This document shows positions 9,655 to 62,833 of a stretch of DNA of 62,833 nucleotides, one piece after another (within the stretch, counting starts at the first letter, position 1; every line of letters begins with the position of its first letter). The DNA lies in assembly GCA_029856105.1 (NCBI GenBank), contig JAHQWH010000009.1, positions 1 to 62,833 on the forward strand, written 5' to 3'. A program made the position numbers and the translations under genes. The notes beneath the pieces were generated by a model. The model did not search any database. It was not told the origin of the DNA and worked only from the letters and a program-made list of their open reading frames with translations. The stretch is from Promethearchaeia archaeon. Lineage in GTDB: Archaea; Asgardarchaeota; Lokiarchaeia; Sigyniarchaeales; SOKP01.

Positions 9655-10101
9655 TTGATACAAGAGATTATTATTCTTAATGACACGGGTGTTCCTATAT
9701 TTTGCCATAACTTTAGTGCTAGTTCAAACGAGGAAAATAATTATCAATTAATTGGTAGCTATTTCGACCAAATTTGCCGCTTTGCCAAATACGGGTTCAA
9801 GGAGAGTTTAACCACTTTAAAAATGAAAAGAAGCGTGTTTTATTTTAAAACGCATCCTAGAACTAATTTTCATCTGATTTTAAAATGTGATAGTAAAGTC
9901 GATAATAAAAAGCTTAAAAAAAAGTCAATTGACAATATTGCTGTTAAAATCTTTGATAATTTCTTTGTTAAATTTAAAAGCGAATTGATGGATTTCAACG
10001 GAAATATTACTCCTTTTAAACGTTTCTCTAAGGATATTAATGAGATGATAAAACCTAAAGGGCTCTTGAGAAATTTTGTAATAAGTCCTGGAATTTTTTA
10101 A
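9655..10101 (+). CDS. Longin/roadblock-like domain protein
   Basis: IIILNDTGVPIFCHNF, LIGSYFDQI, DFNGNITPFKRF pattern typical of Asgard longin-like domains. Confidence 0.65.
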   Translation: MIQEIIILNDTGVPIFCHNFSASSNEENNYQLIGSYFDQICRFAKYGFKESLTTLKMKRSVFYFKTHPRTNFHLILKCDSKVDNKKLKKKSIDNIAVKIFDNFFVKFKSELMDFNGNITPFKRFSKDINEMIKPKGLLRNFVISPGIF

Positions 10102-50088: not shown

Positions 50089-50206
50089 ATGATAATTTCT
50101 TTTCCCCAATATGGGCCCCAAAACTCTATTTACAAGCCTTGGTCTAGATGTAGTTATTCCAGATCCAACGAATCGAGAAGCGATTAAGATTGGGATAAAA
50201 CAATCC
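50089..50206 (+). pseudogene. Degenerate 5' fragment of the 59450 dehydratase-like gene
   Basis: CTATTTACAAGCCTTGGTCTAGATG and TTCCAGATCCAACGAATCGAGAAGCGAT are identical to 59500-59560; carries a +1 frameshift and a 15-nt deletion. Confidence 0.85.
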
Positions 50207-50207
50207 T

Positions 50208-50291
50208 CGAATAGAATCCTTCACTGAAATGATTAAGCGCAAGAAGAGAATGCAAGCTGGAAAAAAGAAAGCGAAAAGAGGCGTGCAATAA
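50208..50291 (+). pseudogene. 3' remnant of another DUF2229-type subunit gene (RIESFTEMIKRKKRMQAGKKKAKRGVQ*)
   Basis: Matches the C-terminal RVESFVEMIRRKK of 48490-49566. Confidence 0.75.
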
Positions 50292-52738: not shown

Positions 52739-53766
52739 ATGAACCAGAATTTTTCAAGAATATTCTTTCAGATGATGTGGATGACAAGTTATATCTAGGA
52801 ATCGATGTCGGAAGTGTCTCCACGAAATGTGCAATAATTAATGAGAGAAATGAATTATTGTATGCTACCTGGACCAGAAATGATGGTTCTCCCATTGTTT
52901 CTACACAAGAAAATCTAAAATACATGGAAGAAGTCCTTCCTGATAACATCGAGAGAAATATTTGTGGTGTTGGGACAACAGGTTCTGCTAGGTATTTAAT
53001 AAAAGCTCTTATCGGTGCAGATATAGCAAAACCTGAAATAATTGCTCATGCAATTGGAGCTTCAACTTATACCCCGGATGTAAGGACGATATTAGAAATA
53101 GGGGGACAGGATAGTAAAGTTATCCTAATGAAAAATGGCATCGTAACAGACTTCAACATGAACAGCGTCTGTGCTGCAGGTACAGGATCTTTTCTAGATC
53201 ACCAAGCAGTTCGGATCAAGGTTCCAATTGAAGAATTTGGGGATTATGCTCTTCGGGCAGAAGAGGAGGTTTCAATTGCAGGACGATGCACAGTTTTTGC
53301 CGAATCTGATATGATCAGTAAACAACAAGAAGGATATTCTAAAGAATCAATTATCAAGGGATTGTGTAAAGCTCTTGTTAGAAACTACTTGAATAATGTT
53401 TGCAAGGGTAAAAAAATGTATCCTCCCTTCGTATTCCAGGGAGGAGTTGCAGCAAATTCCGGAATAAAAAATGCTTTTGAAGAAGAATTGGGGTATGAAG
53501 TCATTATTCATGAAAACTATTACGTGATGGGAGCATTTGGTTCAGCCATTTTGGCAAAGGAACATGTAAATGGACAGATATCTTCTTTTCATGGCCTAAA
53601 AGTTAGTGAAATGAACTTGGCTCAAGGTTCATTTGTCTGTCCTGATTGTGCAAATAGATGTACAATTAAATACCTTGTCAGGAAAGAAGATAAAAGTAGA
53701 GTAACTGGAAGAGAAAAGGATGATGCGATATTTGCACGATGGAATAGTAGGTGCGGTAAATGGTAA
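52735..53766 (+). CDS. Acyl-CoA dehydratase activase (BadF/BadG/BcrA/BcrD ATPase, Fe-S)
   Basis: GIDVGSVSTK, TTGSAR, EIGGQDSK, CAAGTG, RCTVFAES, CPDCANRC. Confidence 0.93.
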   Translation: MNEPEFFKNILSDDVDDKLYLGIDVGSVSTKCAIINERNELLYATWTRNDGSPIVSTQENLKYMEEVLPDNIERNICGVGTTGSARYLIKALIGADIAKPEIIAHAIGASTYTPDVRTILEIGGQDSKVILMKNGIVTDFNMNSVCAAGTGSFLDHQAVRIKVPIEEFGDYALRAEEEVSIAGRCTVFAESDMISKQQEGYSKESIIKGLCKALVRNYLNNVCKGKKMYPPFVFQGGVAANSGIKNAFEEELGYEVIIHENYYVMGAFGSAILAKEHVNGQISSFHGLKVSEMNLAQGSFVCPDCANRCTIKYLVRKEDKSRVTGREKDDAIFARWNSRCGKW

Positions 53767-55094
53767 ATGTTAGAGTTTCATTTTCACGAATGGGTTGGAG
53801 CTATATTTTTTTCAAAGGTTTATTCCATGATCTTCCTGGTATTGAAGTTGTTGAACCCCCTCTAGTAAACACTGAAATCGTTAGTGAAGGAGTCAAAGTT
53901 TCTCCTGAATTCGTTTGTTTTCCATTTAAAGTCATTCTTGGTGAAATGATAAACCTTTATCGTAATTATGATGTTAAAGATTTTGCGATGATTGCTGACT
54001 ACGGCCCTTGTCGAGCAGGAATGTATGGTGTTGTCCAGAAAAGAATCCTGAAAAACATGGGATTCAAGGATGTTAGAATGTTTTATCTGCGCCAAGATGA
54101 TTTTCGAACTCTTGAATGGCTAAGGATATTTCGTGATTTAGAAAAAAGAACAGGAAAAAAATTTGATGACTATAAAGTTTTAAGAAACACACTCTTGTTC
54201 TTGGCCAAAGCATACTATGTTGAAAGAATAAGCCATATTGAAGGACTTGTTAGATGTCGAGAAAAAAACAAATCAATGACTACCAAAGTAGTTCATACTT
54301 TGATGAATTTACTTGATAACGAAAATAATTTGATGAAATTATCTAATTTTGATAGAACGATAGATGAAAATTTTCGCAAGATTCCTATTGACAAGGAAAT
54401 GGAACCTTTGAGGGTTTGTTATACTGGGGAAATCCAAGTCATGTTGGAGAAATGGGTTAATTATGATCTGATGGGAGAATTAGGCGTCATGGGTATCGAG
54501 GTTCACAAGCAGTATGATGTCTTTGATTGGGTCATGCACAAACTTAACGCCAGCAAACGAAGAAGACGGCTTGAACATAGTGCAAGAAAGTATATTCCAA
54601 TGGATTGCGGTGGAGAAGCGCAGTGGAACATGGGAAGTTATCTTGAGTCTCAAGAAAAAGGTTTTGATGGTTTTGTCCATATATTCCCATTTACTTGCCT
54701 CCCCGAAATATCCCTCATGGGAATGTTAGAAGCTGAGAAAAACATGGACAAGTTTTACATGCCCCACATTCATATTAGTCTTGATGGAAGTTCTGGTTTT
54801 GAAGGACTTAGAACAAGAATCGAGGCATTTCACGATTTAATGGTTGGCAACAAGAAAACTAATCCCTTGTTTAGAGATGCCAAGTATGTGGTCCCGGATG
54901 AAGTAAAAAATATATATTTTAAGCCGAAATCCAATTTTGAATATTTCCTGTCTAGTATTGAAACCCCCATGTCAAAGGTTTTAACAATGCTGAATCCATC
55001 AAAGAAATTAGATGTAGGATTCACCGTTAAGAATGGACTCGAGTTTTTTTCAAGAAATTCGTTTTTTGGTATCGGATCTCTTTTTAACCTTTGA
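53760..55094 (+). CDS. 2-hydroxyacyl-CoA dehydratase-like / PlsR-like subunit (intron-less paralog of 59450)
   Basis: SPEFVCFPFK, GPCRAG, GEI, GGEAQW, PFTCLPE, TRIEAF. Confidence 0.85.
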   Translation: MVNVRVSFSRMGWSYIFFKGLFHDLPGIEVVEPPLVNTEIVSEGVKVSPEFVCFPFKVILGEMINLYRNYDVKDFAMIADYGPCRAGMYGVVQKRILKNMGFKDVRMFYLRQDDFRTLEWLRIFRDLEKRTGKKFDDYKVLRNTLLFLAKAYYVERISHIEGLVRCREKNKSMTTKVVHTLMNLLDNENNLMKLSNFDRTIDENFRKIPIDKEMEPLRVCYTGEIQVMLEKWVNYDLMGELGVMGIEVHKQYDVFDWVMHKLNASKRRRRLEHSARKYIPMDCGGEAQWNMGSYLESQEKGFDGFVHIFPFTCLPEISLMGMLEAEKNMDKFYMPHIHISLDGSSGFEGLRTRIEAFHDLMVGNKKTNPLFRDAKYVVPDEVKNIYFKPKSNFEYFLSSIETPMSKVLTMLNPSKKLDVGFTVKNGLEFFSRNSFFGIGSLFNL

Positions 55095-55110
55095 GAGGCT
55101 TAAGGCAAAA

Positions 55111-55563
55111 CTACTTTCGCAACGAAAAGTAAACCTTCAACAGCACCAAGCTCCAGAAAACGGTCCAAACGCTAATTATTAAAGGCATAATGTCATTTGC
55201 AGAAATCGAGTAAAGAAATCTCGTAAAGGCATAATAGGTGGCGTAGACGCTGCAAGTAGCAATAAAAATTATCAAAGGGACGATAACAAAAGCTAAATCG
55301 GCTTTAAAGTGTTTTAACTGACTACTTTTAGGTTTTGTTTTTTTACGAGTTGCTAAATTAAGCGTTTTCTTTTTCAAATATTTAACCGTAAAAACTATTC
55401 CAAGCGCGAACAACCCCGATAAAAGGACGGTAAGGAAGAAATAAAACGCTACTAAGGTCGGTTGCTGCTCGAGTAAGACGTTTAAGCATTGGTAAGGCAC
55501 GAAATAGCCGAACGCTAAAAAGCCAAAAACAATGGTAAAAATTACTAGCGGAAAATACAGCAA
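55111..55563 (-). CDS. Four-TM membrane protein, possibly 5'-truncated
   Basis: Hydrophobic segments; overlaps the start of the divergent ORF. Confidence 0.6.
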   Translation of the reverse strand: MLYFPLVIFTIVFGFLAFGYFVPYQCLNVLLEQQPTLVAFYFFLTVLLSGLFALGIVFTVKYLKKKTLNLATRKKTKPKSSQLKHFKADLAFVIVPLIIFIATCSVYATYYAFTRFLYSISANDIMPLIISVWTVFWSLVLLKVYFSLRK

Positions 55564-58500
55564 ATGTTTTAGTTGTATTGATCTTAGTGCAAACCCGATT
55601 CGATTTACTAAGTTGCACGCCCTGCTCGGCGAGCTTACGCTTACGCTTACGGTACCTTTAAACGCGAAGTTAGCGAATATTTTAAACGCTCTTTATTTCG
55701 AGATTCAGCGCGTAGAAAGTGAGCCCGATAGTTCGGGTTGCTCCTATTACGTCGTTTTCCAGTTTAATATCGAGAAGTACCGCTCGATCGACGACCTTCG
55801 AGACCTCACCTCGGAACAGGTAAATAAGATCGCCACCGCGCAAGCGATAGAAGCTTCTATTCTCGAGTACAATTACCAATTTAACCTCGCAGTTCAGACT
55901 CAGATGAGCTACCACGAGCTATTTTACACCGGGATAGTTACGGCTGTATCCACTGCTATTACTATGGGTGCTACTTTAGGCGTCGGAAAGGTAGTTGAAT
56001 TAGCAGGAAGCCTAACAGGTACCGCTGCGAAAGAGTTGAGCAAGTCCGCTTCGAAAACGCTTTTGGGCCTTTTACAACCCACCGCTGGGTTTAGCTCTTG
56101 GGGCGTATTGTATACCGTGGCTAAAGAGATCGGTCAAGAAGTATTAATAGACCCTTGGATCGAGAGCGCGGTTTCTGGAATGGTTAGGCGCGCGGGAGGG
56201 GACGCTATGCTACAGATGGTGCTCAGTTCGGTCGCGGAGAGCTTGAGAGAAACGCTCACCGGACCTTTTACTAACCTATTTAGCTCCCAGCAATCTGAAG
56301 GCGCGTCTTTATACGAGCAACTCGACGCTAAATATTTCTCAAGCGGTTTAAAACCAACGGTCCAAGACGTTCTCACTGTTTTTAACGAGTACAGAACGGA
56401 AATTGAAGTGCAAATAGAACAACATAGAGGTGATCTGAAATTGCTCGGTGGAGCCACGAGAGCTATTAGTTTTGTGTCAATAGCTTTAGGTTTTACCGCT
56501 TCGCAATTTCTCGGACCCATTAGCGCCTTAGTGTACTCAACGCTTGCAACCTATTGCTTCTCAGAAGACATTTCGCTTAAAGACGCGTTCAAGCAAGCTT
56601 TTAGCCCTATTAAAGCGGCTATAAGCAATAGTAAAATCGGAGACTATGTGCAAAACAACAAAAAGAAAGTGTTAGGTCTTGTCGGTATTGGCGCGCTGTC
56701 GGCTACAATGACGGGATTGCAAGTATTATTACCCTCTTTAAACCTTCTCTGGAGCTTTCTACCCGGAGTAGGCGTGCCGATAACGATAGGGATGGTTCAA
56801 AATAAAAAATTAGATTCTAAAGAGGAGATAGTCCATTATAACAGATGGTTAACAGATCGTATAAAGTCTTACTTAGACAACCTTCCTAATAGGATTAATT
56901 ATTTATTTGATCCATATAAAGCTTTTACAAAGATGGGCAGTCTTCTCGGTCAGAAGGATTCTTACTTCCTCGAGCAAAGACGGTTGAAATGGGCTAAGAG
57001 AGTTTTAGCTCAGACAGTACTCGATACTATGAGTTCAAGTTTGAAGCAGAAAATTGAAGAGTGGTCTGGCGAGTTTCCACAATTAGAAGAAGATTTATTC
57101 AAAGTTTACTCTGATCTGATTAGTTTTGTTGACGATTATCAAAGAATCTTAAATCCTAAACCTTCTCCACGGTATCAGATGTATAATCACCATCCAAATT
57201 TCAATAGAAATTTCTTCTCTGAGATTACGACCGCTGAACAAGCATACTGGCTTGGATTTATAGCAGCTGATGGTTATATTAGTGTAGAGCACAAAAAATA
57301 TGGAGATTATTATCGTATGGGCATAGGGATATCTACCAAGGACGAAACTGAATTTGGTCTTTTGACGAAGTTTTGTAAAGCTGTAGGACTAAATCCAAAA
57401 TATATAAGCACTAGACCAGTTCGTTGCGATTTTACGGGGAAAGATAGTTTAATTAGCGAGATAAGATGGGGCGATCAAGAATTTGCTCAAGACCTTATTG
57501 ACCTCGGCATAGAGTATGATTTCGTCGAATCCAAAGGGAGGAGAGTGAAAGTAGCAACATTGCCTGAATTCGCCAGCAGAGAATTAGCTTTAGCTTATCT
57601 TTTAGGATTCTACGATGGAGATGGTTCAAAAGGTTTAAATAGCCAAGATAAGAGTATTTATCCCACAGTTTCTTCTGAAAACAGAGAATTCTTGTATCAA
57701 TTAAAGAATTACTTTGGAATTAAAAGCAAAGTAACAAAAGCTACCGTTGAAAGATATGATCACAGAAGGGATATTATTGTAAGAAGTACCCAGCACAGGC
57801 TCTACTTGGAAATACCTCTCTTTAAAGAAATGATGGAAAATTATGGAAACAGTCTAGAAAGGAAAAGAGAAAAGCTCGAACGACTCGATCATTATGGAGT
57901 GTCTTCCACTCGGTATTTCTTAAGACAAGTTCTTAAAAGGGATTTATTAGAAGCAATGTTAGAGATTATATCTCCTAATAAGATTGGTAAGATTTTAGGC
58001 GTAAAAGGTGAGACAATAGCTAGGTTTGCTCGAGACGAGTATGGGCTTTCAATCCCAAAGACTGCAGGTGAGTATCAATCGATTCAACATTCACTTAGAA
58101 ATTTAAGAGTAGATTCTGAGTATTACGCAGATTATTTCCACTATACAAACTTCCTTGGTGGCTTAAGACGTGGTTCACAGGGATTATTTGGGGATTTTAA
58201 TTTTAGATTACATGAATACTACGATACAGAGTTAATTAAAGAGCTAGTGAGTCAGGGTATCAAAGTCGACGAAACCAAATCGGTAGCTTTCGCTCGAAAT
58301 CGAGGAGTTGTAGATAAAAACGGAAAAGTAATAGAAAATCCTAGAATTATTTGGTTAACGCAGGGAACAGCAAGGAGAGGTCTTGACCATATTTTACTTC
58401 GTCACGGTGAGGGTGGCATCCCAAAGAAGAAATTCAGCACTATTTTTGGTATATCAGACGACGCTGAAACTATTGGCAACTTTATTTTTTACGCTATTAC

Positions 58501-58657
58501 TAAATTTCCAGTTCACTTAAAATTACCAGGAGCTGGGGGACGGTCTACACTTTATGTGTATCAAATTCGGAGAAAAGGTGAAATTAATTATTTGAAAATT
58601 CTAGTAGACGAAGAGGGAGAAATTGTTACGGCATACCCTGATAGGAACGAAAACTAG
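55532..58657 (+). CDS. Polymorphic-toxin-like protein: hydrophobic helical region + two-motif LAGLIDADG domain + C-terminal nuclease-toxin-like tip; N-terminus probably truncated
   Basis: AYWLGFIAADG and AYLLGFYDGDG; tip IIWLTQG...GLDHILLRHG...GEIVTAYP. Confidence 0.7.
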   Translation: MVKITSGKYSKCFSCIDLSANPIRFTKLHALLGELTLTLTVPLNAKLANILNALYFEIQRVESEPDSSGCSYYVVFQFNIEKYRSIDDLRDLTSEQVNKIATAQAIEASILEYNYQFNLAVQTQMSYHELFYTGIVTAVSTAITMGATLGVGKVVELAGSLTGTAAKELSKSASKTLLGLLQPTAGFSSWGVLYTVAKEIGQEVLIDPWIESAVSGMVRRAGGDAMLQMVLSSVAESLRETLTGPFTNLFSSQQSEGASLYEQLDAKYFSSGLKPTVQDVLTVFNEYRTEIEVQIEQHRGDLKLLGGATRAISFVSIALGFTASQFLGPISALVYSTLATYCFSEDISLKDAFKQAFSPIKAAISNSKIGDYVQNNKKKVLGLVGIGALSATMTGLQVLLPSLNLLWSFLPGVGVPITIGMVQNKKLDSKEEIVHYNRWLTDRIKSYLDNLPNRINYLFDPYKAFTKMGSLLGQKDSYFLEQRRLKWAKRVLAQTVLDTMSSSLKQKIEEWSGEFPQLEEDLFKVYSDLISFVDDYQRILNPKPSPRYQMYNHHPNFNRNFFSEITTAEQAYWLGFIAADGYISVEHKKYGDYYRMGIGISTKDETEFGLLTKFCKAVGLNPKYISTRPVRCDFTGKDSLISEIRWGDQEFAQDLIDLGIEYDFVESKGRRVKVATLPEFASRELALAYLLGFYDGDGSKGLNSQDKSIYPTVSSENREFLYQLKNYFGIKSKVTKATVERYDHRRDIIVRSTQHRLYLEIPLFKEMMENYGNSLERKREKLERLDHYGVSSTRYFLRQVLKRDLLEAMLEIISPNKIGKILGVKGETIARFARDEYGLSIPKTAGEYQSIQHSLRNLRVDSEYYADYFHYTNFLGGLRRGSQGLFGDFNFRLHEYYDTELIKELVSQGIKVDETKSVAFARNRGVVDKNGKVIENPRIIWLTQGTARRGLDHILLRHGEGGIPKKKFSTIFGISDDAETIGNFIFYAITKFPVHLKLPGAGGRSTLYVYQIRRKGEINYLKILVDEEGEIVTAYPDRNEN

Positions 58658-58741
58658 AATCCCCACGCACTACCTAAATTTAAATTAGAATTGTTCTTTT
58701 TTTTTATTAATTATTAATTTAATTAGCATTTTTACGGAGTT

Positions 58742-59284
58742 TTGGTTTTGAGGGTATTTGTATCAGATGTTATCGTTAAAAAGGATAAAGATGGCTACGA
58801 TTACTACTGGGTTGTTGGAAACCTTCAGAGTGGGATGGAAGTTATTATCGACGATTATTACTTTGATCTTCGCGAGTGGATAGGTCAAAGCGTTGAAATG
58901 TTGCTGTCATTTTTGCGGTCACCTTACAGCGAGCTCCAGAGAGGTATTTGCAACAAATTATTTTTACCGTTTAAGTATTATTCCGTGGAGCTCATTGACG
59001 AGTTGTTAGAAGAGAAGGGCGTCGTCTCAACCGGCAACGAAAGAGTTGTAATCTTGACTGGTGAATTTATTGATTCCTATGCTATCCCCAAAAAATGGGC
59101 TTCTTTCACTCAACGAGACTTGTTTAGAGTTTTGTACAAGGAACCGTCTGCTCTAAAAACTGAGGACGGAGCGTTCCTTCTATACCCCTTTCATTTGCGA
59201 AAGGCAGTTCCAATAGAGAGATTTCCTCAGGAAGTAACAGTGGCGGGAAGTTTGAATTTAGAAGCCTGGATTCCAAGCCATTGA
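58742..59284 (+). CDS. Hypothetical protein, candidate immunity protein
   Basis: Directly downstream of the toxin tip; GGAG SD before TTG; no recognised family. Confidence 0.55.
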   Translation: MVLRVFVSDVIVKKDKDGYDYYWVVGNLQSGMEVIIDDYYFDLREWIGQSVEMLLSFLRSPYSELQRGICNKLFLPFKYYSVELIDELLEEKGVVSTGNERVVILTGEFIDSYAIPKKWASFTQRDLFRVLYKEPSALKTEDGAFLLYPFHLRKAVPIERFPQEVTVAGSLNLEAWIPSH

Positions 59285-59449
59285 TGTTGGCTTGGTTTTA
59301 ACCTTAACAATCTGAAAGAAACAGACTATTTAGCGAGGGATTTGGAAAATTACTTTTTTATCATACTATTGCGAATCTGTTTGTAATGGGAAAATTTTTA
59401 TTTTAAACTGTGTTATTTGATTAAATACTTAACTAGGTAAAAATACATC

Positions 59450-60670
59450 ATGTTAATATCATTCCCTAACATGGGGCCTAACTGGGTAGCTTTTAAAACG
59501 CTATTTACAAGCCTTGGTCTAGATGTTGTAGTTCCAGATCCAACGAATCGAGAAGCGATAAAGATTGGAGTCAAGTATTCCCCCGAATTCGTGTGCTTCC
59601 CGTTTAAAGCGACTATTGGAGATTTCGTGAATGCTATAGAAAAGGGAGCAGATACGCTAATCATGGCAATAGATTGCGGACCGTGTAGATTTGGCTTTTA
59701 CGCGAGCGTTCAAGAACGCATTTTAAAAGATATGGGTTATAAAGACATTACGGTTATCCCCCTTGACCAAGCAGACCTTTTAGATTTTAAATGGGTCAAA
59801 ACTCTTCAAGAAGTTAGCGGTCGAAAGGATTTATTTATGTATTCAAAATTCGTTAAGGCTGTTATTATTTTTCTAAAGAAAGCTAAACTGTTAAACGATA
59901 TTCAAACTGCCGAAGGTATCTTCCGAGCTTACGAGCGTAATCAAGGAGATACAACGGATTTGATTAAAAACTTATTGGATAAGCTTGATCAAGCTAATAC
60001 GCTCCCAGAATTGAGAAAATTTAAAAGCGTTATTAAGCAAGATTTTAGCAATTTAGATATTGATAAAACCCGAACTCCTCTACGGGTGGGTGTTTCGGGG
60101 GAGATTCACATTAACTTGGAACCCTATGTAAATTTAGATATCCGTAGAAAGCTGGGTGAGATGAACATTGAAGTACACCAAAGCTTGAGCTTATACGATT
60201 GGGTCGTCCATAAATTCCATTTAAATTATCACAGAAAGTGGTTGGAACACCTTTCCCATCCATACATGCCCATGGACATTGGCGGTGAAAGTTTTGAGCT
60301 TTTAGCTTAAAACCATCTTTGCCAATGGGTGTTAGGTGAATATATAGACAAAGCTCAAGCGGGGTTTGATGGCTTCGTTCATCAATATCCGTTCTTATGC
60401 CTCCCCGAAGTGACGGCTCGGACGATTTTAACTAATAAACTTAAGGGAATTTACGATCTTCCCATCATTTACTTCTCTTTCGACGAACAGAGTGGATTAG
60501 GTGGCTTCAGAACTAGGTTAGAAGCATTTTCAGATCTAATGTATGGTCGTAGGAATAAAGAAATTGAAACTAACGCCAAATTCATATCAAATGGTAATAA
60601 AAAGATTTATCCGCATTATGGCAATTTATTTTATAATGAATGCGTTCAATTAATTCAAAATTCGGTTTAA
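59450..60670 (+). CDS. 2-hydroxyacyl-CoA dehydratase-like / PlsR-like subunit interrupted by a 30-nt BHB intron; join(59450..60289, 60320..60670), 396 aa
   Basis: The two track ORFs (59450-60310, 60329-60670) are halves of one protein; the spliced junction PMDIGGE^CQWVLGEY aligns without gaps to paralog PMDCGGEAQWNMGSY. Confidence 0.9.
60290..60319 (+). other. Putative mRNA intron, 30 nt (AGUUUUGAGCUUUUAGCUUAAAACCAUCUU), canonical bulge-helix-bulge
   Basis: Outer helix CAUUGGC/GCCAAUG, bulge UU^U, central GGUG/CAUC, bulge AA^A, inner stem GUUUUGAGC/GCUUAAAAC; contains an in-frame UAA. Confidence 0.9.
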
Positions 60671-60688
60671 TAATAAAAGTGAGATTAT

Positions 60689-61714
60689 ATGGTTGAAGTT
60701 ACTGAAAAAATTGCTAAAGAGAGGAAAAAAAAAGATGCTTTCCTTGGTATTGACATAGGAAGCGTGAGTTGCAAATTCGTTCTAATGGATAAAGATGGAA
60801 ATTTACTTACCAGCGTATTTTTACGAAATAGAGGTTCTCCCATCGACTCAGCCAAGGCAGGAATGGCAGGGTTACGCGATAACATAGAACAAAGTGAAAA
60901 TTTAGGCGACTACGAGATACGTTGCTGTGGTACTACTGGTTCGGCACGGTATTTAACAAAAGCAATCGTAGGTGCCGATCTCGCTAAAACTGAGATAATA
61001 GCTCACGCTGTTGCAGCACAGACCATCTATCCCGATGTAAGAACGATTTTAGAAATTGGTGGTCAAGATTCGAAAATAATTCTTCTACGGGACGGAATAA
61101 TTGTAGATTTTGCGATGAATTCTGTGTGCGCTGCGGGAACGGGTTCTTTTCTCGATCATCAAGCAGCGAGACTTGGGATTCCTATAGAGGAGTTTGGCGC
61201 TTACGCTGTAAAATCGAAAAATCCTGTGAGTATAGCTGGAAGATGTACTGTATTTGCAGAATCCGATATGATTCACAAGCAAAATGCGGGGTATTCTAAA
61301 GAAGATATTATTGCTGGTTTATGCGATTCACTTGTTCGCAATTATATGAACAATGTAGGTAAGGGTAAAACCTTGGAAGAACCTATTGTGTTCCAAGGCG
61401 GCGTTTCTTACAACAAAGGGATCATTGAAGCATTTGAAAGACATTTAGGTTGCAAAGTAATTGTTCCTAAATATAACGTCCTAATGGGGGCTTTAGGAAT
61501 GGCAATTTTAGTTAGAGATTTCTATTTAGAGAACGAACATCAAACTGTATTTCGAGGACTCGAAGTAGCTGAAATTGAATTCACGACCTCAGCGTTCAAC
61601 TGTGGAGACTGCCCCAATAATTGCGAAATAGTCCAAGTAAAGATGCCCCAAGAGGGAAATAAAATTATAGCTCGCTGGGGCTCTCGTTGTGGTAAATGGG
61701 ATCAAGTAGATTAA
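60689..61714 (+). CDS. Acyl-CoA dehydratase activase (BadF/BadG/BcrA/BcrD ATPase, Fe-S)
   Basis: GIDIGSVSCK, EIGGQDSK, CAAGTG, RCTVFAES, CGDCPNNC. Confidence 0.93.
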   Translation: MVEVTEKIAKERKKKDAFLGIDIGSVSCKFVLMDKDGNLLTSVFLRNRGSPIDSAKAGMAGLRDNIEQSENLGDYEIRCCGTTGSARYLTKAIVGADLAKTEIIAHAVAAQTIYPDVRTILEIGGQDSKIILLRDGIIVDFAMNSVCAAGTGSFLDHQAARLGIPIEEFGAYAVKSKNPVSIAGRCTVFAESDMIHKQNAGYSKEDIIAGLCDSLVRNYMNNVGKGKTLEEPIVFQGGVSYNKGIIEAFERHLGCKVIVPKYNVLMGALGMAILVRDFYLENEHQTVFRGLEVAEIEFTTSAFNCGDCPNNCEIVQVKMPQEGNKIIARWGSRCGKWDQVD

Positions 61715-61875
61715 TTTCGAGTTTTATATTCTGATCTTTTGATAACATACTTTTCAAACTATTATTGTATTTACAATCTTTAAATTAGATAAATGAATAT
61801 TTGAATAAAATAAGAAAAAGCATATCTACTAAAGTTATTAAAATATTGTCCAATTTTTAATAAAAGAGAAGTAAA

Positions 61876-62070
61876 ATGACAGAATTTTTTAAGCAATTAA
61901 AAGACTTGGGCGGGGAATTTCTCGAGTCCTTGCAACATAAAACAAAATTATCGACAATATTTGATATTTATTTAGAAAAAGTAATCCCTTCATTTGTTTC
62001 CGAAAAAGAGTTAAAGGAATATTACGAGAGACGGATGGAGGAAGTTAATAATTTCATAGACAAACTATAA
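61876..62070 (+). CDS. Small helical hypothetical protein
   Basis: 64 aa, co-oriented within the lipid cluster. Confidence 0.6.
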   Translation: MTEFFKQLKDLGGEFLESLQHKTKLSTIFDIYLEKVIPSFVSEKELKEYYERRMEEVNNFIDKL

Positions 62071-62084
62071 ACGAGGGGAAAATA

Positions 62085-62780
62085 ATGGTTGAAACATCTT
62101 CCGAGGAGAATGAAACGAAAGGAAAAGATAAGGTGCTTAGTAAGAATCTTATGGAAGATATTTTTTACGCAGTTACCAAAGGTTTAGGAAACTTTGGTTT
62201 AACGGCATTCGCAGACTTACAAATTGAAGGGCGGGAAAATGTACCTATTATGGGAAGAGCGATTTTAACTACGATTAGCCACAACGCGTTAAGAGATATG
62301 GCGATTATAAGTCAAGTTACTGGACGAAGAGTTCACTTTATGGTCCATCATAAACTAATGAAGAATCAAATGTACGGCCCCGTTCTTAAGTCGTTAGGCA
62401 TGTTTCGCAGTACCCTCGATAAGGACGATACTATACCTATAGATAAAGTGTTCCACTATCTTAACGAAGTTGGGGATCTTGTAGCCATGACGCCGGAATC
62501 AAAACTTACACCCGAAATTCAGGTGAAAGCAATGGCGGGAATCATTAAATTTGCGGTTGCTGGAAAAGCGCCTATAATCCCCATAGCAATATACACGGAA
62601 AACGCGAAAATTTTAGGTATGTTTAAAACACAGGGGTTAAGAGTAAAAATCGGGACCCCACTTAAGGTAGAGAAACGATTGTCTCGACCAAAATATCGAG
62701 ATGAGAGATACGAACTCGCTGAGGATATATTAAGAATTATTGATTCCCTTAAACCACAACCCGATAATGAATTAGAATAA
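62085..62780 (+). CDS. Divergent PlsC-type acyltransferase
   Basis: IEGRENVP, SHNALRD, TPES (for PEG), APIIPIAI, VKIGTP. Confidence 0.8.
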   Translation: MVETSSEENETKGKDKVLSKNLMEDIFYAVTKGLGNFGLTAFADLQIEGRENVPIMGRAILTTISHNALRDMAIISQVTGRRVHFMVHHKLMKNQMYGPVLKSLGMFRSTLDKDDTIPIDKVFHYLNEVGDLVAMTPESKLTPEIQVKAMAGIIKFAVAGKAPIIPIAIYTENAKILGMFKTQGLRVKIGTPLKVEKRLSRPKYRDERYELAEDILRIIDSLKPQPDNELE

Positions 62781-62833
62781 AATTAAACATAAAAATGAGG
62801 TTTTATTATGGAAAAGAGCCAAAGTTCAGAACT

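Follow-up and report, generated by a model that had tools for sequence, protein, structure and literature searches.

How is a conserved archaeal gene expressed when a stop codon lies within its reading frame, in the middle of an invariant motif? The question is raised by a forward-strand gene near the end of a 62,833-nucleotide (nt) stretch of DNA from a Promethearchaeia archaeon (contig JAHQWH010000009.1; the whole stretch is here called the window). In the list of open reading frames (ORFs) and in translation, its single reading frame extends from ATG at 59450 to TAA at 60668-60670 and is broken by an in-frame TAA at 60308-60310, because of which ORF finders return two products of 286 and 113 amino acids (aa). 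The N-terminus of the interrupted gene matches Pfam DUF2229, a CoA enzyme activase domain (E 1e-11), and the C-terminus gives a weak match to the HGD-D dehydratase component. An earlier note on this DNA had attributed the break to a bulge-helix-bulge (BHB) intron. Our analysis argues for the same answer: 60290-60319 is very probably, at a likelihood that we put at roughly 85%, a recently gained BHB intron that interrupts a protein-coding gene and would be removed by the archaeal splicing endonuclease EndA and the ligase RtcB. The parts of the gene and of the proposed motif are as follows.

59450-60289, forward strand: exon 1, 280 codons ending ...MDIGGE, of the gene for the DUF2229/HGD-D-like protein (ORF list and translation, DUF2229 match, collinear with orthologs).
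60277-60283, forward strand: 5' strand CAUUGGC of the exon-exon helix, pairing with 60321-60327 through 7 Watson-Crick base pairs (bp), no G-U.
60284-60287, forward strand: exon strand GGUG of the central 4-bp helix, pairing with CAUC at 60314-60317, one G-U.
60288-60290, forward strand: 5' bulge AAA, 3 nt; predicted cut at 60289/60290, an insert border.
60290-60319, forward strand: predicted BHB intron, in frame, 30 nt, with TAA at 60308-60310; absent from orthologs and paralog, its borders coinciding with canonical BHB cut sites.
60291-60313, forward strand: intron hairpin, stem 60291-60299/60305-60313 of 9 bp with one G-U and a possible 10th U-A pair, loop 60300-60304.
60314-60317, forward strand: intron strand CAUC of the central 4-bp helix, pairing with GGUG at 60284-60287.
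60318-60320, forward strand: 3' bulge UUU, 3 nt; predicted cut at 60319/60320, an insert border.
60320-60670, forward strand: exon 2, 116 codons and the stop, beginning CQWVLGEY... (frame of exon 1, weak HGD-D C-terminal match, dN/dS, the ratio of non-synonymous to synonymous substitution rates).
60321-60327, forward strand: 3' strand GCCAAUG of the exon-exon helix, pairing with 60277-60283.

Every element of the motif that the earlier note had described was found where that note had placed it, including the 30-nt insert and its in-frame UAA. The predicted fold has the strict hBHBh' form, in which two 3-nt bulges on opposite strands are separated by a 4-bp helix and flanked by helices on both sides, with the central helix stacked directly on the 7-bp exon-exon helix. 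If each bulge is cut behind its second nucleotide, 60290-60319 is removed and what remains is GGC GGT GAA/TGC CAA TGG, which encodes GGECQW. The predicted junction in the spliced RNA is GGCGGTGAA/TGCCAATGG and the predicted junction peptide is MDIGGECQWVLGEYIDK, as compared with the tail ...GGESFELLA of the unspliced product. The joined exons would themselves fold into a 7-bp stem closing a 7-nt loop, GGUGAAU, with the intron placed between loop positions 6 and 7. No group I or group II intron or other RNA family was matched in Rfam at the gathering score in the window, nor at E values up to 1 in 60150-60450, and the insert, with its 30 nt, is far too small for a catalytic group I/II intron.

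The borders of the insert can be set without reference to any fold, since intron-less copies of the gene are available for comparison. One of these lies in the window itself:

53760-55094, forward strand: intron-less paralog used as internal reference, 444 aa, 40% identical, with GGEAQW at 54609-54626.

BLASTP aligned the paralog with the interrupted gene from end to end, and the only gap, of exactly 10 residues, falls at the insert. The gap-free match between GGECQW and the GGEAQW of the paralog that the earlier note had drawn from the EndA rule is thus upheld, although the paralog motif lies one base downstream of the position given there (54608-54625). A first draw of 40 related genomes yielded 28 orthologous loci, all 28 of which were continuous across the junction. 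When all 42 genomes of the genus were searched, each of 25 further orthologs was 30 nt shorter and had no internal stop, and 69 further species-level genomes of Promethearchaeota (Lokiarchaeota) or their allies each gave a distance of 0 between the matches to exon 1 and to exon 2. Approximately 95 intron-less orthologs, together with the paralog, show zero-gap junctions at the insert site. The nearest relative, with 97% protein identity and a synonymous divergence (dS) of ~0.35, is intron-less and reads GGGGAA/TGCCAATGG at the junction. Since the bases on either side of the insert are not those at its ends, its borders are unambiguous, and the borders set independently by the orthologs and by the paralog are the canonical BHB cut sites. 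Because it is absent from all orthologs compared, the insert is by this comparison specific to one species and young. The exon hairpin was already present in the nearest intron-less relatives.

The insert is part of the DNA of this organism. An exact-identity look-up of the 286-aa product returned 13 public contigs, 10 of which were shown and come from 10 different samples (2 JGI, 3 ENA and 5 Logan assemblies of sequencing runs). All 10 carry the identical 30 nt and gene calls of 286 and 113 aa, so the two-gene annotation foreseen in the earlier note is found in every public contig shown. Two haplotypes are present, with two of the 10 contigs sharing two exon 2 differences (one synonymous, one Asn/Asp). 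An assembly artefact is excluded because the identical insert occurs in 10 contigs from 10 samples. A further copy, also with the insert, is contig C26 (9085 bp) of the same genome, which is the reverse complement of window positions 53749-62833 at the end of contig C10 and differs from the window at two positions (54201 T/C, 54335 G/A). C26 represents either a redundancy of the assembly or another strain in the bin, which agrees with the contamination estimate of 6%. Exact-pattern scans of metagenome contigs for the 30-nt intron and for the spliced junction (a 32-mer) matched nothing, which is uninformative since records of near-identical sequence can escape such a scan.

How often would such a motif arise by accident? 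Both strands of the 3.66-Mb genome were scanned for BHB motifs with intron lengths of 14-150 nt, approximately 1e9 placements, and a mirror-geometry control preserved the helix content while placing the bulges on the wrong side. At the stringency of the 60290-60319 motif the only matches in the genome were that locus and its duplicate on C26, and the mirror control gave zero. A far looser BHB definition gave 2822 matches in ~1e9 placements (~3e-6 per placement), and the mirror geometry was matched no less often. An accidental BHB with its cut sites on fixed insert borders is extremely unlikely, because the strict motif is unique in the genome and even the loose motif occurs at only ~3e-6 per placement. 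A relaxed scan, with equally many matches in its mirror control, also listed candidate BHB-like inserts of 29-36 nt, each of which would link two long open frames if removed, at C107:27654-27685(+), C19:180189-180220(+), C161:9667-9695(-), C227:27785-27813(-), C161:21340-21369(+) and C124:16076-16111(+). We also looked for a source of the 30-nt insert. There was no second copy within 6 mismatches in the genome, and in the 42 genus genomes only 3-mismatch matches were found, equal in number to a reversed-pattern control and lying in coding region without hairpin potential. A repeated mobile element resembling a miniature inverted-repeat transposable element is ruled out by the lack of further copies in the genome or in relatives beyond chance level.

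Constraint on the interrupted gene was judged from its substitutions. Against five intron-less orthologs dN/dS was 0.05-0.09, and for exon 2 it was 0.063 against the nearest ortholog and 0.06-0.22 across the five. Over residues 158-396, outgroups place 23 synonymous and 4 non-synonymous codon changes on this lineage, 10 and 3 of which, respectively, fall in exon 2, and no further lesions were found in the interrupted gene. Exon 2 is, judging from these substitutions, under purifying selection. Furthermore, two synonymous changes in exon 1 separate this genome from its four closest relatives, and both strengthen the motif. The outgroup-polarised change GAT to GAC at 60277 turns a U-G into a C-G pair at the end of the exon helix, and the change GGR to GGT at 60286, read from the junction sequences, turns a mismatch into a U-A pair in the central helix. 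These changes fit selection for the fold, with the limit that the numbers are small.

The genome encodes the machinery that such splicing would need. Two 200-aa proteins, encoded on C107 and C12, carry the endonuclease N- and C-terminal domains (PF01974, PF02778), one with the conserved catalytic His region and the other without it, an alpha/beta-like arrangement, and RtcB is also encoded (PF01139, E 9e-168). The RtcB open frame (C191:86017-87324, L038) is 545 aa long, and its Pfam match covers 426 profile positions. Asgard archaea have been described to possess a broad-specificity (alpha-beta)2 EndA (PMC5829648), and their tRNA genes are heavily interrupted, with signs of repeated independent intron gain (PMC11291895; bioRxiv 10.64898/2026.10.13.758758). 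In line with this, ARAGORN detected only 23 tRNA genes in the genome and predicted introns in 16 of them, 7-58 nt long apart from a doubtful one of 1171 nt; heavy interruption probably hides many tRNA genes from detection. The introns described in those two studies share with 60290-60319 the lineage, the enzyme system and the small size class, but their hosts are tRNAs rather than a coding gene; both studies treat tRNA genes only and do not mention introns in coding sequences.

Similar inserts interrupt other genes of this lineage. The single-copy uL11 gene (C16:9697-10258; L125/L130) contains two frameshifting BHB-type inserts, at 9747-9778 (32 nt) and 9829-9857 (29 nt), and removing both restores the universal N-terminal motif VTGG-SASGGPPIGPAVGPTGIN. 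Across the genus (relatives L131-L159) uL11 carries inserts at a minimum of four (at least 4) positions within the first 40 codons, in a mosaic of presence and absence. The 29-nt insert is retained in 11 species, with 91% of cells paired as against 29-47% in slid controls, and its central helix is paired in every sequence. We cite this intron for conservation and not for covariation, because double changes are few and shuffles matched the covariation score in 111 of 500 cases. Since uL11 is essential and no pseudogene in 11 species, the lineage must, by this argument, splice BHB-type inserts from uL11 mRNA. A thiolase gene (C39:31908-31937, minus strand; L170) has a 30-nt in-frame BHB insert with a stop between HDAF and YEELG. 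Its central helix is CUGG/CCAG, its bulges read ACA and UCA, CUUCU/AGAAG forms the exon helix, and taking the insert out gives HDAFSGQEVISYEELGF. Other inserts of BHB type in the genome are 29, 31 or 32 nt long and shift the frame. A truncated Rad51-family match on C45 was also considered as an intron-split gene and was rejected, being a collinear paralog with no split.

Together, the geometry, the insert borders, the EndA and RtcB genes, the presence of the insert in at least 10 assemblies, the constraint on exon 2 and the uL11 inserts support the splicing-endonuclease intron that the earlier note had proposed. Several points weigh against this interpretation. It is drawn from DNA sequence, and splicing of the RNA by cleavage and ligation in vivo, like the timing and manner of the gain, is what we infer from it. 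There is no covariation support for the 60290-60319 intron, as no relative carries the insert and the 10 contigs are identical; the ortholog alignment that the earlier note had recommended showed the insert absent from ~95 orthologs. The dN/dS values would look alike if the insertion had disabled the gene only very recently. The BHB fold, at -19.5 kcal/mol, lies 3.6 kcal/mol above the nearest-neighbour minimum free energy (MFE) fold of -23.1 kcal/mol, and its central pairs have an ensemble probability of ~1%; the splicing enzyme would need to pick out or stabilise this fold, a usual situation for BHB substrates. Finally, a structure-only census of BHB motifs whose removal restores an ORF showed no excess over the mirror control at three settings (305 true versus 330 mirror; 2480 versus 2638; and 106 versus 90 at a stricter cut). 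No genome-wide intron count can be taken from this census because any signal is drowned out by the AT richness of the genome and by ordinary gene boundaries.

Four other explanations of the interrupted gene were weighed, none of which explains a geometry whose cuts fall exactly at the insert borders. The strongest of them, which we nevertheless hold to be improbable, is a young pseudogene, in which a recent insertion inactivated the gene, the transcript stays unspliced and the BHB is either incidental or left from an unprocessed intron-derived insert. An insert in one species only, an in-frame stop, an intact paralogous gene set 5 kb upstream that might compensate and dN/dS values compatible with a very recent event would all suit such a history. 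It would, however, require an incidental BHB with cuts on the borders, at ~3e-6 or less per placement, and leaves the allele as the sole one in 10 samples and two haplotypes, free of further lesions and with two derived synonymous exon changes that better the pairing, in a lineage in which inserts of this kind are tolerated in uL11, a gene that cannot be pseudogenic.

It is considerably less probable that the gene is split, with the 286-aa product and a 113-aa product starting from GTG at 60329 assembling without RNA splicing. Both ORFs are called in every contig and exon 2 is under purifying selection, but the break would fall inside the conserved DIGGE-(A/C)xW motif, so that CQW would be missing from the second ORF and the first would end in a foreign SFELLA tail; moreover, sequence inspection revealed no ribosome-binding motif before GTG 60329, and the BHB geometry would be left unexplained. 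Translational recoding, either by read-through of TAA or by ribosomal bypass of the 30 nt, is slightly more remote still. Recoding would suit an in-frame insert with a stable hairpin such as this one, but read-through would add 10 foreign residues to an invariant motif that is uninterrupted in all homologs, and for bypass there are neither matching take-off and landing codons nor a stop placed after the would-be take-off site. Recoding is also not a general solution, because the other BHB-type inserts of the genome (29, 31 or 32 nt) shift the frame. The least probable explanation of all is an assembly or binning artefact, by which the insert would be foreign to the organism's DNA: the metagenome-assembled genome (MAG) does have 6% estimated contamination, and C26 does duplicate the end of C10, but the identical insert was recovered in 10 contigs from 10 samples by different pipelines and independent assembly.

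We therefore return to the BHB intron, for which we propose the following course of events. In the transcript, exon 1 would pair with exon 2 over 7 bp and the last exon 1 nucleotides with the 3' end of the intron over 4 bp, the latter helix being flanked by the two 3-nt bulges, while the rest of the intron forms a hairpin. A heteromeric EndA, made of an alpha and a beta-like subunit, would cut after the second nucleotide of each bulge, and RtcB would join the exons to give the conserved DIGGE-CQW motif in a 396-residue protein. On unspliced RNA, translation would end at the intron TAA after 286 residues. The intron would have been gained recently and in one species only, in a pre-existing exon hairpin at a place equivalent to 37/38 of the anticodon loop. 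Either insertion targets hairpins resembling an anticodon arm, or only inserts in such a context are spliceable and survive.

The closest known parallel is the cbf5 pre-mRNA intron of Crenarchaeota (Desulfurococcales, Sulfolobales) described by Watanabe (2002) and Yokobori (2009) (PMC2738675). In the literature searched, crenarchaeal cbf5 is the only case of a BHB intron in archaeal coding sequence, with one more BHB intron in a Haloferax 5' untranslated region (UTR) (PMC2738675, PMC7714728). Like 60290-60319, the cbf5 intron lies within coding sequence, was gained or lost in particular lineages and was overlooked by gene callers. Its removal by tRNA splicing endonuclease and ligase has been demonstrated experimentally, whereas here removal is predicted from sequence. 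The gene, the position and the phylum differ (Asgard versus Thermoproteota), and the present intron is confined to one species and much younger. Membership in the cbf5 intron lineage was rejected, given a DUF2229/HGD-D-like host gene; the mode of action would be cbf5-like.

Similarly, the 5' UTR intron of Haloferax volcanii HVO_1309 (PMC7714728) makes an mRNA a substrate of archaeal splicing endonuclease, but it lies in an untranslated leader, leaves the reading frame uninterrupted and belongs to a euryarchaeon with an alpha'2 enzyme. The canonical archaeal pre-tRNA intron at 37/38 is the hBHBh' motif described by Marck and Grosjean (2003; cited in PMC11291895). Its architecture is identical to that proposed here: the central 4-bp helix joins 5'-exon loop nucleotides to the 3' end of the intron, and the exon stem of our gene takes the role of the anticodon stem. 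The host differs in being an mRNA without a tRNA body, whose exon sequence is codon-constrained. Among eukaryotes, the HAC1/XBP1 mRNA is cut by IRE1 and joined by RtcB-type or tRNA-ligase activity, which removes a short intron and alters the C-terminal part of the protein. The likeness to the present case is the non-spliceosomal, protein-catalysed excision of a short mRNA intron; the differences are that IRE1 and not EndA acts there, on stem-loops rather than a BHB, as part of a regulated stress response.

We also offer, tentatively and at slightly less than even odds, a wider reading of these observations. According to it, tRNA-type introns are still being gained and lost in coding genes of this Lokiarchaeial genus, in which EndA/RtcB splicing of mRNA would be routine. 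The 60290-60319 intron would be a very young gain that landed in, or survived through, an exon hairpin resembling an anticodon arm (37/38-equivalent), with exon codons then tuned synonymously to the motif.

Directly downstream of the interrupted gene is a gene whose position in the gene order is kept in all public contigs shown and whose product is likely the functional partner of the interrupted gene, in the same cluster:

60689-61714, forward strand: BcrAD/BadFG-type ATPase (Pfam PF01869, E 3e-47).

A second, paralogous set of activase-type genes lies 5-10 kb upstream of the interrupted gene. Between the two sets is a 1041-aa ORF (55532-58657, forward strand), whose N-terminal half is hydrophobic and which has a LAGLIDADG homing-endonuclease domain at residues ~685-765; one of the public contigs, L162, has smaller ORFs called in this region and differs there at 57 positions. 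Farther upstream, a short open stretch at 50099-50212 on the forward strand, directly upstream of an 806-aa FAD-binding/DUF2229/HGD-D gene, resembles the interrupted gene at 84% identity over residues 4-46 and is probably a piece of a gene that a duplication left behind. A comparable upstream fragment occurs in relatives (G005; Loki_b32 L076). At Loki_b32 locus L076 an apparent 284-nt extension was considered and rejected as an intron; it is a partial copy, covering the first 27 residues, that lies upstream.

The results bear on how Asgard genomes are read. Public gene calls split this gene, uL11 and thiolase into fragments or truncated products, and metabolic reconstructions and pseudogene counts from Asgard MAGs are biased unless such introns are modelled. 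The 60290-60319 insert provides a dated example of mRNA intron gain, because it combines a textbook motif with an intron-less relative at 97% identity and population-level confirmation, and it offers a clean substrate for biochemistry. EndA-type introns in Asgard coding sequences bear on the origin of intron-tolerant gene expression before eukaryotes. On the wider reading offered above, close prokaryotic relatives of eukaryotes would splice mRNA with EndA and RtcB as a matter of routine when expressing their genes.
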